Source of the DNA: Flagellatimonas centrodinii
GTDB taxonomy: Bacteria > Pseudomonadota > Gammaproteobacteria > Nevskiales > Nevskiaceae
NCBI RefSeq assembly: GCF_016918765.2
Contig: NZ_CP092105.1
Location: forward strand, 79,160 to 111,159
DNA length: 32,000 nt
Direction of reading: 5' to 3'
Position 1 is the first letter of the stretch; each line of letters opens with the position of its first letter. Positions 10,299-24,494 of the stretch are shown here, piece after piece. Position numbers and translations under genes: made by a program. Below the pieces are notes generated by a model. It made no database searches, had not been told where the DNA came from, and worked only from the letters and a program-made list of their open reading frames with translations.

Positions 10299-10308
10299 AC
10301 CCACCTCT

Positions 10309-10327
10309 TTTATAAACCATCCCCCTA
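10309..10327. repeat. Left arm of a perfect 19-bp inverted repeat (TTTATAAACCATCCCCCTA)
   Basis: Exact reverse complement of 10464-10482. Ends 10 nt upstream of the Tus-like start codon and abuts its SD. Confidence 0.9.
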
Positions 10328-10463
10328 GTACACCAGCCACCCCACTCCTGCCACCCCCACCCGCTATCCCCCTGACCCACCGACATTTCTTTTTCTCTTT
10401 TCCCCCTCTTCTTCTCCCCTCTTAAAGCTTGGGCGGCCGGGGCTGGGGCTGGGCGCCCTTGTT

Positions 10464-10482
10464 TAGGGGGATGGTTTATAAA
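10464..10482. repeat. Right arm of a perfect 19-bp inverted repeat (TAGGGGGATGGTTTATAAA)
   Basis: Exact reverse complement of 10309-10327. Lies 26 nt upstream of the ATG at 10509. Contains a TATAAA -10-like hexamer. Confidence 0.9.
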
Positions 10483-10508
10483 CGGGGGTGCGCACGGTCT
10501 AAGGGATC

Positions 10509-12668
10509 ATGACCCGACGCCGCAACAGAACAACCATCGACGGCCGCGTCTTGCGCGCCTGGCGAAGTCCGACAGGCTCGGCGGTGGCCCAACTGCAGGT
10601 CGAGAGCGAGATCGTGCCGGTGCTGGCCAAGAACATGGCGCTGGTGAGCGACGAGGTCGTCTGTCTGGAGGGCAAATGGACCTCGCACGTCGGTTCGGGC
10701 CGCCTGTTCCTGGCGGCAAAGATCCGGACGCGCCCTCCCGAGAGCCTGGCCGCTTCGGCATCGATGCTGGCGGAGGCCTTGGAAGTCGATATCGGCGACA
10801 TCAACCGGCTCATCAGCCGCTTCGGTGACGACCTGCTGAGCGTGCTGGACGGCGGCCATGCGAAACGGCTCACGGATGCCGGATTCGACGCCGGCATGGC
10901 GCGCACCATGATGACGAACTGGGCTTCGCATCGGTCGCACCAGGCCTTGGCACCGCTGCTGGGGAAGCTCGGCCTCGACGAAGAGGCGCTGGAAGCCCTC
11001 CGCAATGTGTTCGGCAGCTCCGTCGATCTCGATCGACAGCTCCGCGAGCAGCCCTACAACGTGATTCTGCATCTGCCGACCGCACAGTGGGATCGCGTCG
11101 AACGGGTCGCTCGTGAGTTGGGGATAGCCGAGGATGCACCCCAGCGGCTGGATGCTGCTGTCATCGCCGAGCTGCGAGCTCGAGGGTTCAGCGGGCACAC
11201 CTACATGACCCTCGATTGGCTGAGGGAGGCCGCCCTGGCCAGGTTGGGGCTGAGCGAACGAAAGACCGCGAGACGCGCGCTCGAGGCAAGAATCGACACA
11301 CTGCGGGCCGAGCGCCTGCTGACGATTGATGCCGACCGTGCATTCCTGCCACAGGCTTTCGAGGAAGCGGCCGCTCTGGCTGAAGGGGTGCTGTCGCACA
11401 GTCGGGCCTTGGCAGACATCGACCCGCCAGACGATCGAGAAGCCCTGGAACACGCGCTATCGAAGATGAGCGTGCCGGAGGGAGTTGATCCGTGGGAGCT
11501 TGGCAGGTTCGCACTGGGCGGAGCGCTCTCCGTGATCTGCGTGCAGGGGCTTGAGGCAGCGCTAGATGTGGCGACGGGCCTCGATCAGGTGTGCGACGTT
11601 CTGAAGATCAAGATGGGGCTCATCTGCCCAACCCTCTGGGCTGAAACCGCATTGAACGAACGTGGCCTGGTGAGTCGGCCGAAAACGCTGCACGAGATGT
11701 TGGGGACTCCGCCGCGGTACGACAAGATCAGCGGTCTGCAGGTTGAGTTGATCGTCATTCTGGGCGCGGACCAGCTTTCATCCGACCAGCTGCACGGGCT
11801 GTTTCGTGCGCGGCCCGACGGCGTTGGGCTGGTTCTGATCGGGGACGACTCGCTGGACACGGGATTCATTCTCGGCCGACCGTTCCGGGATATCGCCAGT
11901 GCCGGCGACGAGGTCGGCGACGCTATTCGCATGATCCGGCATCCGACTGGTGGAGCGCTGGTCACCAGGGCTCGACGCCTAATGGACGCCCCGGAGATGA
12001 TCGGCCGCTTGCAAGGGCGCTTTCAGTTGCCGCTGTCAGCACATGAATGTCGGACTGAAGACGTAGACGGCGCGGTCTACAGCATCGTGGAGCGCGTGCT
12101 TCCAAGGTTGAACGCTCTCGATGAAAGCTACGCGGTCTGTTACCCGCGGAGGGCGGGACTCCCTGATCCCACGGTCCTCGCTGACCGACTGGAGCAGCTT
12201 GAGAGCACTGAAGCAGCGATCGCCTTCGGGCGACGATCTTGGCGGTCCGGGGCAAAGGTCTACTTCACCGAGCCACTGCCAGGGGAGATCACAATCCCGG
12301 CCTTCACCCGACTCGAGCTTCGTCTGATTGATGCCAGTCCGGGACCCTTCCCGGCACGCACCGTCGATGGCCGGGAACTGGCGATTACAGCCGCACAATT
12401 GGAGCGCGCATTTCCTGCGCGGGTGGCACCGGTTCACGCGGTGCTGTGGCAACCGGTTGATACGCTCATCCTGATGCTGCCTCCCGGCCGGCTCCATCAC
12501 GCACGTCGCATCCTCTATTCCATGGCAGCCAGCGCGCGCCGGCGCCTGATCCTGGTTGGAGCTACTGAGGCGTTCACTGCCGCCTTGTCGGAAGACCATA
12601 GCGAGCCTTCAAGTCTGCTAAAGATGACGTTGGTAGGCCGCGCCCATCACGAGAGAGCATCCACATGA
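10509..12668 (+). CDS. RecD2/TraA-architecture SF1 helicase-like protein with degenerate ATPase motifs
   Basis: N-terminal OB/SH3-like segment (VVCLEGKWTSHVGSGRLFLAAKI), an HhH-like region, QPYNVI (RecD2 nPYxL), CPTLWAE...TLHEMLG (APTGRAA...TIHRLL) and a C-terminal RRRLILVG. However, Walker A is replaced by VQGLEAALD and Walker B DE by ILGADQ. Confidence 0.65.
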   Translation: MTRRRNRTTIDGRVLRAWRSPTGSAVAQLQVESEIVPVLAKNMALVSDEVVCLEGKWTSHVGSGRLFLAAKIRTRPPESLAASASMLAEALEVDIGDINRLISRFGDDLLSVLDGGHAKRLTDAGFDAGMARTMMTNWASHRSHQALAPLLGKLGLDEEALEALRNVFGSSVDLDRQLREQPYNVILHLPTAQWDRVERVARELGIAEDAPQRLDAAVIAELRARGFSGHTYMTLDWLREAALARLGLSERKTARRALEARIDTLRAERLLTIDADRAFLPQAFEEAAALAEGVLSHSRALADIDPPDDREALEHALSKMSVPEGVDPWELGRFALGGALSVICVQGLEAALDVATGLDQVCDVLKIKMGLICPTLWAETALNERGLVSRPKTLHEMLGTPPRYDKISGLQVELIVILGADQLSSDQLHGLFRARPDGVGLVLIGDDSLDTGFILGRPFRDIASAGDEVGDAIRMIRHPTGGALVTRARRLMDAPEMIGRLQGRFQLPLSAHECRTEDVDGAVYSIVERVLPRLNALDESYAVCYPRRAGLPDPTVLADRLEQLESTEAAIAFGRRSWRSGAKVYFTEPLPGEITIPAFTRLELRLIDASPGPFPARTVDGRELAITAAQLERAFPARVAPVHAVLWQPVDTLILMLPPGRLHHARRILYSMAASARRRLILVGATEAFTAALSEDHSEPSSLLKMTLVGRAHHERAST

Positions 12669-23164: not shown

Positions 23165-24494
23165 TCCAAAGGATGAGCCACGGAACCCGATCGACGATTT
23201 TCTTGATTCTCTTGACGATGACGTTGACAAGGATCCTCTGGATAGCGAGGTGGCACGAACGCTCGTCAATGATGTCGACGCCGGCGGCGATGCGCAGGTG
23301 CTGGCGCAGACCCTCGAGAGTGGTGAGGCCGAGGGCTCTACACAAGACCGTGAGCATGAGTCGAACGACAATCAGGGACCTGAAGTCGACACCCCTGCTG
23401 CAGCGTCCTTCAATAGTAATGTGACAGAGGCAGTCACCGAACCCGCGGTTGACCACGAGGGCGGCATAGTGGCGCCCGCGATGCCGCAGGGGCCAGGCGA
23501 CCAGTTTCGGGTCGCTGCTCATTCCGCAAAGAATGCGCTCAGCAAAGCGGCTGGCCTGGTCGCCGACAAGTCGGCGGCATTCTCCGGGCTGGTGGCAAGA
23601 GCGCGCCGTGCGCGACAAGTCGAGAGACAGGAGCCGATCGCGACGAAACCATCCACCGGTGACTCGGACACGGAAAGCCCGTCAGGGCCCCAGCGGATGG
23701 GCAGCACGAAGGCCAAACCGCACAGAAGGAATGCGGCCTTCGTAGTTTCCGCGGTCCTGATCCTCGCGGTCGCCGGGATCAAGCGCTGCAGCGAAGCGGT
23801 GCCACCTCCGCCCAACGCGGAAACCCTGTCGAGCCCGGATCTGAAGCCGGTTCCCGAGCAGAGTGTCGAAGACAACGGAATCGAGCTGCCCCCGCTGGAG
23901 CCACAGCGCGATGATTCTCTCGATTTGCTACCCGAGGTTACGGCAGCGACTGATATGGGTGATCCACACCAGTACCAGTCCATAGCGTTCGGCCCCCTTG
24001 GCGCCTCGGCCCGCGCAGAGGGCGCAGAGGGCGCAGAGGGCGCAGAGGGCGCAGAGGGCGCGGCCCAGTCTGAGAGCCGCTCCAGTGAAGTGACGCCAGA
24101 TCAACCAGCTCAGGATTCCGATGATCAGATTGGCGAGGCCGGTTTGACAACGGCTGCGCCGGAGGCCAGTCCGGCTCCGACAGCGGCGCCCAGCCCGCCC
24201 CCGAAGGAGAAACCGCAAACCAAGACCGCCATACCGGGCAAAGCGGTGACACCGACGCCGGGAGTCCGGCGTCCACGCGATGCGACCAACGTGAAACCGG
24301 ATATCAGGATCGGTGCGATCGTTGCTGCATCGGGTTGTTGGAACTGTGCACCGTCCGTGCTCGTGCTTCACGAGGCGGGGCGCGACGTCGTCGCCGCCGG
24401 CGATCAGTGGAAGGGCTATACCGTTTCGGTTTTCGGGGATCGGGTCACGCTGTCGTCTAAGACTGGGAGTTGGAGTTTCCTTCCGGAGCGGTGA
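23151..24494 (+). CDS. Acidic / Pro-Ala-rich bitopic membrane protein with an internal AEG x5 repeat
   Basis: Asp/Glu-rich N-terminus, a central TM (AAFVVSAVLILAVAGI), a long P/A/E/S/T low-complexity region and a small C-terminal globular segment. Confidence 0.55.
   Translation: MMSNDPKDEPRNPIDDFLDSLDDDVDKDPLDSEVARTLVNDVDAGGDAQVLAQTLESGEAEGSTQDREHESNDNQGPEVDTPAAASFNSNVTEAVTEPAVDHEGGIVAPAMPQGPGDQFRVAAHSAKNALSKAAGLVADKSAAFSGLVARARRARQVERQEPIATKPSTGDSDTESPSGPQRMGSTKAKPHRRNAAFVVSAVLILAVAGIKRCSEAVPPPPNAETLSSPDLKPVPEQSVEDNGIELPPLEPQRDDSLDLLPEVTAATDMGDPHQYQSIAFGPLGASARAEGAEGAEGAEGAEGAAQSESRSSEVTPDQPAQDSDDQIGEAGLTTAAPEASPAPTAAPSPPPKEKPQTKTAIPGKAVTPTPGVRRPRDATNVKPDIRIGAIVAASGCWNCAPSVLVLHEAGRDVVAAGDQWKGYTVSVFGDRVTLSSKTGSWSFLPER
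24015..24059 (+). repeat. Five perfect tandem copies of the 9-bp unit GCAGAGGGC, in frame (Ala-Glu-Gly x5)
   Basis: Read directly. The first unit begins on a codon boundary of the 23151 ORF. Confidence 0.9.

Follow-up and report, generated by a model that had tools for sequence, protein, structure and literature searches.

A strand-asymmetric spacer between inverted repeats beside a plasmid tus gene: a probable replication fork trap

The window analyzed here, a 32,000-nt stretch of the Flagellatimonas centrodinii genome, contains an intergenic tract whose two strands differ sharply in composition, and this raises the question of what such a sequence does. A preliminary description of the DNA had emphasized its G-quadruplex (G4), i-motif and H-DNA motifs, had noted Ter-like repeats on either side, and had proposed a role as oriT, as oriV or in fork pausing.

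The tract, its flanking arms and the adjoining tus gene

The composition reported in the preliminary description, about 6 G in 97 nt and a pure 38-nt pyrimidine run, was exact. Positions 10331-10427 of the plus strand contain A14 C50 G6 T27 over 97 nt, 10386-10423 consists of pyrimidines throughout, and both G4 motifs, one on each strand, lie where they had been placed (Table 1). The claim that this composition is unlike the rest of the window was also upheld. The lowest G count of any other 97-nt interval outside the tract region is 14, the runner-up among purine or pyrimidine runs in the window is 12 nt long, and a first-order model predicts 2e-7 runs of the 38-nt length in the window; the 3.6-Mb genome as a whole has no longer run of either kind. 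The window's extreme G4Hunter-type scores (-2.28 at 10354 and +1.88 at 10431) are those of the G4 patterns in the tract. G4 motifs per se are not rare, with two more on the plus strand of the window and a chromosome total of 237. A short 9-nt tandem repeat within an ORF at 24020-24058 yields another G4-type motif. The tract is not an assembly artefact, because a seawater-metagenome contig spans the region, with a single difference in the tract (T>C at 10392) that retains the pyrimidine; the run that contains it is possibly related to the source of the window and hence not fully independent. Partial cover of the region in three other runs (X2, X5 and X6) is uninformative about the tract.

Table 1. 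Features of the locus, with positions in the window
Feature	Positions	Strand	Basis or remark
tus, plasmid-encoded Tus (replication terminus site-binding) homologue, 308 aa	9372..10298	-	PF05472, profile, structure
Tus-proximal candidate Ter site and operator, 19-bp perfect arm	10309..10327	-	inverted repeat; TerB-like orientation to tus; motif conserved at tus loci
G/T-rich, C-poor segment (C-rich on +)	10328..10385	- (tus strand)	holds minus-strand G4 motif 10354-10378; composition counts
38-nt homopurine tract (homopyrimidine on +)	10386..10423	- (tus strand)	ends ~60 nt short of proximal arm
G-rich segment (C-rich on tus strand) facing distal arm	10424..10463	+	holds plus-strand G4 motif 10431-10453
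Tus-distal candidate Ter site, 19-bp perfect arm	10464..10482	+	inverted repeat; motif conserved at tus loci
Divergent RecD2-like gene heading coupling-protein/type IV secretion operon; neighbor, outside the element	10509..12668	+	PF14490, TIGR01448, N-terminal match only

The repeats that had been described on either side of the tract are real. The arms at 10304-10327 and 10464-10487 are inverted, 24 nt long and 92% complementary, and their perfect 19-bp core is absent from the rest of the genome at up to 3 mismatches. The proximal arm ends ~10 nt ahead of the tus ATG in the orientation of TerB, the vicinal site in the E. coli tus leader, and it matches TerB at positions 6, 8, 9, 10, 12, 14 and 15 (G6, A8, T9, G10, T12, T14 and A15). 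Since the match is only 8-9/18 in the proposed register versus 6-8/18 in the best reverse register, with G6 preset by the search pattern, the polarity of the arms is assigned largely by analogy. With E. coli polarity applied (PMC8707476), both arms would face inward, the proximal arm being predicted to stop forks traveling leftward on the plus strand and the distal arm those traveling rightward.

The 308-aa product of the adjoining gene, the only tus in the genome, matches PF05472 at E 8e-13, and a 48-sequence family profile matches E. coli Tus over its full length at E 1e-39. Its AF2 model (pLDDT 92) has a Foldseek TM of 0.75 to 1ECR, the structure of E. coli Tus, and Tus was the sole Foldseek match with E below 0.001. 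By profile and model, then, it is a true Tus homologue in both family and fold. We take H144 and F140 of Tus to be the pocket residues of the C(6) lock. A histidine at E. coli position 144 was found in 0/36 aligned Tus homologues, most of which have Arg or Lys, and F140 is likewise not conserved, in an alignment that is uncertain at ~20% identity. The lack of His at 144 in these homologues suggests that the known lock is probably absent.

Related tus loci and the composition of their spacers

Loci with tus were gathered from GTDB genomes, from plasmids (24 regions) and by a blind motif-pair scan, giving 86 loci, of which 66 had Tus and 54 were left after removal of 12 duplicates. An inverted pair lies upstream of tus at 37 of these 54 non-redundant loci, found by motif at 31 and, with variant arms, by a repeat scan at 6. 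The arm core at the 31 loci reads GG(A/G)TGGT(A/T)T(A/T)A or a close variant, the spacers are 51-274 nt long, and the pair is retained where the upstream gene is co-directional. No pair was found at 17/54 loci, mostly homologues from a class-wide search in small genomes. Tus homologues without a leader pair include L015, L016 and L020-L030, several of them in small genomes; similar short repeats were seen by eye upstream of L025 and L026.

Of the 27 loci returned by the blind scan of GTDB, 8 have tus no more than 1.5 kb away, and the contig of one other carries a tus with an internal stop. A full three-arm leader with a purine tract and no adjoining tus is present at L112 and L197 (G584:C4), and at the opposite end of that 84-kb contig there is a tus with one in-frame stop. 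At L009, L012, L098 and L112, the proximal arm is repeated in direct orientation 60-100 nt beyond the first copy, which makes three sites. Single-protein scans of GTDB and metagenome contigs returned no relatives, and a motif scan of viral contigs returned one locus, without tus. Among 15 whole plasmids the motif occurs essentially only as one pair upstream of tus, the exceptions being a plasmid with two extra single sites at 1 mismatch and another in which just one of the arms fits the exact pattern.

Loci with more similar Tus proteins also have more similar arms (Mantel rho 0.43, p 0.001, n=22), and arms agree at 15.8/18 positions within a locus versus 10.9/18 between loci. This co-variation is as expected of a cognate site, and shared descent alone would give it too.

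What the spacers conserve is composition, since their sequences barely align between loci (best blastn E 0.008). The loci were collapsed to 24 lineages at 60% Tus identity, with L018 and L032 counted though absent from the alignment, and 857 intergenic sequences (384 divergent and 473 tandem, most from the host chromosome) served as controls. On the tus-sense strand, the distal half of the spacer is C-rich and the proximal half G-rich in 23/24 lineages, a skew switch. Across the 24 lineages the longest purine run has a median of 14.5 nt, versus 6 nt in the controls. Purine tracts of 12-53 nt occur at comparable positions in many tus leaders; some spacers (L013, L108 and L120) have no sense-strand purine run. 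Toward the predicted block, CC dinucleotides fall in 41/48 half-spacers and YC dinucleotides are lower than at entry in 44/48, while depletion of CTG primase sites is inconsistent (24/48).

The earlier emphasis on G4, i-motif and H-DNA structure finds no support in conservation. G4 motifs occur in 2/24 lineages on the sense strand and 4/24 on the antisense strand, and none of 8 long tracts has H-DNA mirror symmetry above that of shuffles; the homopurine mirror repeat of the present tract has an arm of 7, against a shuffle mean of 6.7. With G4 not conserved among lineages, the motifs here are most plausibly a side effect of skew in a host rich in GC.

The arm motif alone is not diagnostic, because the tus-arm 12-mer also bounds unrelated multi-copy inverted pairs in genomes with no tus match. 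These look-alike elements show no consistent skew switch (-0.27 to 0.41) and have purine runs of 4-11 nt. They occur at L107, L123, L125, L129, L130, L131, L133, L198, L200 and L201 (small genomes G585-G588 and others), with up to 21 motif matches per genome, and are ~150-215 bp long, with homologous interiors and terminal inverted repeats of ~18 bp in which the 12-mer core recurs. A check of 11 ORFs next to those in small genomes gave no transposase. We regard them as MITE- or REPIN-like.

Position of the pair on its plasmids

The window belongs to contig C2, a conjugative plasmid of 146.5 kb, circular by a 47-nt terminal overlap, that carries two Rep3 genes, par genes and a type IV secretion operon. 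Each Rep3 gene is preceded by iteron-like repeats, judged by eye (~3 kb and ~13 kb), and the two sets of gene and repeats occupy 1-3 kb and 13-14 kb of C2. The pair is at 89.5 kb, 52/48% of the way round from one rep and 59/41% from the other. Because both rep genes and their iteron-like repeats are 60-86 kb from the tract, the oriV role suggested for it is unsupported. The suggested oriT role fares no better, since the pair accompanies tus and not transfer genes, the TraI_2 relaxase (PF07514) was not found in the genome, and the sole relaxase candidate on C2, a 491-aa HD-domain protein (L003:7875-9350; C2 45875-47350, minus strand), is ~42 kb away. A Pfam scan of 144 proteins found no relaxase family.

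The gene on the RecD2-like side of the pair differs among related loci. Here, the RecD2-like protein was considered as a relaxase and rejected, its similarity being to N-terminal RecD2 only; it has no Walker A recognizable by eye, and its gene overlaps the start of the coupling-protein gene. C2 also encodes, at another position, a RecD2 that is intact. Predicted genes of C2 are on one strand in 123/137 cases, and they include a plasmid RecA, a ribonucleotide reductase small chain without a large-chain match, thymidylate synthase, dUTPase, a 5-hmdU kinase-like domain and a ThiF/E2/JAB gene set. UvrD-like, RecD2 and RecG-like helicases are also encoded. Closely spaced inward-facing sites opposite oriC were inhibitory in vitro unless UvrD was present (PMC6315707), in light of which the helicases of C2 are suggestive only.

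If the pair marks a terminus, a change in GC skew might be seen there. On C2 the skew is positive throughout, with no sign flip at the pair. Fourfold sites of plus-strand genes step from 0.107 to 0.048 across it (p 0.025), and the best switch point is at ~77 kb versus 89.5 kb for the pair. In a set of 12 plasmids that are not independent (11 of the 15 whole plasmids and C2), a terminus-like step at the pair was found in 9/12 at the 10-kb window (p 0.01), and the other three window sizes were not significant. A terminus at the pair fits well in W13, W03, W05 and W01 and has no support in W02, W04, W07 and W11. In W13 the cumulative skew has its minimum on rep and its maximum 3.6 kb from the antipodal pair, and the maxima of W03 and W05 are no more than 2 kb from the pair. 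The pair is 2-8 kb from rep in 6/12 plasmids, the R1-style arrangement, and opposite in W13 and C2. W13 and W06 have Rep proteins that are 93% identical, yet their pairs are 68 kb and ~3 kb from rep, respectively. This contrast is possibly a natural switch between bidirectional and near-unidirectional replication.

A proposed fork trap, its rivals and known systems

The locus is most likely, and best, read as a Ter pair that faces inward, as in R1/R100, and relies on the Tus that the plasmid itself encodes. Sequence, the structure model and analogy together indicate that the tract is probably the spacer of a compact plasmid fork trap in which the proximal arm doubles as the tus operator. The fork-pausing role and the link to Ter-like repeats in the preliminary description fit the evidence: ahead of the tus gene the tract is enclosed by inverted arms, and distant tus loci keep the same strand asymmetry. 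In the proposed mechanism, the plasmid Tus would bind both inverted arms, their blocking faces turned inward, and each fork would enter across one arm and halt at the other, while the proximal arm, within the tus leader, would repress tus. A trap that is near-antipodal to the origins would fix the point at which the forks meet, and would prevent run-on rolling-circle replication.

The lagging-strand template, which is the strand tracked by the helicase, would be pyrimidine-rich where a fork enters and purine/G-rich just before the block, most strongly so ahead of the tus-proximal arm. Such a purine-rich template may slow or condition the replisome so that a Tus without C6-lock residues can hold the fork. 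An approach lane of this kind is favored by the strand pattern, by the missing lock histidine, by the incomplete and kinetic nature of arrest at TerB (PMC8707476) and by the stalling of forks at homopurine runs on the lagging template (PMC11077069). Those stalling results come from long repeats that form triplexes, and (A4G)n gave no stall (PMC11077069). Also against this reading, the rep closer to the pair faces the distal arm in W07 and W04, and the W07 tract is nonetheless on the tus strand. Given the trap, this speed-bump role is speculative, and we put it forward as a tentative possibility.

Two explanations remain live rivals to the speed-bump role. One retains the arms as Ter sites and takes the bias of the spacer for a passive or priming-related footprint of single-stranded DNA, without any slowing of the fork. 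The lagging template would be single-stranded before an arrested fork, leading to cytosine deamination and to few of the pyrimidines at which primers, which start with a purine, are begun. C is depleted on exactly the predicted strand beside each arm, and the declines of CC and YC near the block and the likeness of the spacers in composition rather than sequence would all follow; but deamination should yield T, and the tract is T-poor and A-rich (T 0.07-0.10 and A 0.49, 60-100 nt from the proximal arm), nor does CTG density drop consistently. We consider a footprint unlikely. It is somewhat less likely again that each half of the spacer is a Rho-utilization (rut) site, acting on RNA that enters from that side and ending read-through before RNA polymerase crosses the far arm, which would insulate the trap and the transfer operon. 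Rut sites are C-rich and G-poor, as is the plus strand of the tract, which is predicted to be unpaired over its first 100 nt (DNA parameters), and RNA polymerase can displace Tus. Genes downstream of tus are often convergent, and the tract is oriented by tus rather than by the nearer origin. On the other hand, the pyrimidine run is T-rich in several loci, and control intergenic regions, which also need termination, seldom show such composition.

The remaining explanations dispense with the trap. The family motif often reads TG-n-TATAAT or TG-n-TATTAT, and both arms here point toward a gene start, as would be expected if they were divergent extended -10 promoters or operators for tus and the neighboring operon and the tract were promoter architecture without arrest. 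This is improbable, given that the -7-equivalent T is present in only 11/20 proximal and 8/20 distal arms whereas the upstream Gs, irrelevant to sigma-70 promoters, are kept in 18-20/20 arms, and that loci whose distal arm points at a co-directional gene, or falls within a gene, retain that arm. The arms of this window also lack the -11 A in the extended -10 register, and a sigma-70 scan of the locus found no promoter; the two terminator-like matches in the same scan are both one weak 5-pair stem. An oriT or oriV marked by G4, i-motif or H-DNA structure would account for the strong G4 scores on both strands and for the adjoining coupling-protein operon, but it is very improbable, with G4 motifs in few lineages, mirror repeats in excess in none of 8 long tracts, the rep genes and iteron-like repeats distant, and many carriers of the pair typed as non-mobilizable. 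Least probable is an origin of the pair in a miniature mobile element that inserted ahead of tus and survives only as a relic. Multi-copy elements with nearly the same terminal 12-mer do exist in small genomes without tus, but these have homologous spacers, short purine runs and no consistent skew switch, whereas the tus pairs are single-copy, with spacers that differ, and co-vary with Tus.

Returning to the fork trap, a broader proposal, which we regard as doubtful, is that plasmid Tus represents an ancestral, lock-less class of terminator in need of an approach lane. A portable cassette of ~1.2 kb (tus, the Ter pair and the asymmetric spacer) would be the source from which chromosomal C6-lock traps were domesticated. 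How the lane would act in this cassette is speculative: a purine tract on the strand that the helicase tracks might hold the replisome back or deprive it of priming, and so let arrest succeed.

Two-site plasmid traps, tus autoregulation and plasmid-borne tus are already known (PMC10331603, PMC6549158), and fork fusion at Tus-ter is covered in bioRxiv 2021.02.25.432933. Plasmid tus has been proposed as the source of chromosomal fork traps, and target sites are missing from the published accounts, as far as the available parts of these extend; plasmid tus or ter genes are named without sites in the parts available of PMC4036041, bioRxiv 2024.09.03.610885 and bioRxiv 2026.05.05.723028. A literature search, largely outside subscription papers and supplements, found no published description of these arms or spacers. 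New here are candidate sites for plasmid Tus, a conserved spacer design and a divergent Tus apparently without the lock residue, which make polar arrest without a C6 lock, and the tuning of arrest by flanking sequence, open to test. The same cassette is present on well-studied IncP-7 plasmids such as pCAR1, and it provides a marker for the terminus of large plasmids. The conservation of a lopsided spacer at distant plasmids suggests a working but unexplained part of how plasmids finish copying.

Among known systems, terI and terII of Bacillus subtilis are likewise opposed sites ~0.1 kb apart near a terminator gene, rtp (PMC13220808), but they are chromosomal and the protein, an RTP dimer, is unrelated. 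The "mobile" tus of Galli et al. 2019 is, as here, a gammaproteobacterial plasmid tus, often beside the origin (PMC6549158). For those proteins and for the Pseudoalteromonas chromid tus, the available parts of the accounts give no Ter sequence, and E. coli-like ter sites were sought on the chromid and not found (PMC7858055).

E. coli Tus-TerB shares with this locus the Tus fold and a proximal site in the same orientation, 12 nt from the ATG here and 16 nt in E. coli, where tus is autoregulated by the vicinal site (PMC10331603). The proteins are only ~20% identical, with H144 and F140 not conserved by alignment, and the second site is 136 bp away here but many kilobases away in E. coli. Type I traps, among them E. 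coli Tus-TerB with its vicinal site in the tus leader, were reportedly treated by Toft et al. in 2021.

The closest likeness is to terRL-terRR of R1/R100, two inward-facing sites on a conjugative plasmid, ~120 nt apart in R100, where the left half of the spacer is C/A-rich (C-rich beside the left site). The R100 Ter sites use the host Tus, while the present plasmid encodes its own divergent Tus beside the pair. The R100 sites match the TerB core at 10-11/12 and differ in sequence from those here, and the purine tract of the R100 pair is 7 nt, in contrast to the long tract of this spacer. The two-site trap of R1, R100 and R6K limits rolling-circle over-replication (PMC10331603, PMC6315707), and the pair described here differs from that of R1/R100 in lying near-antipodal to the origins.
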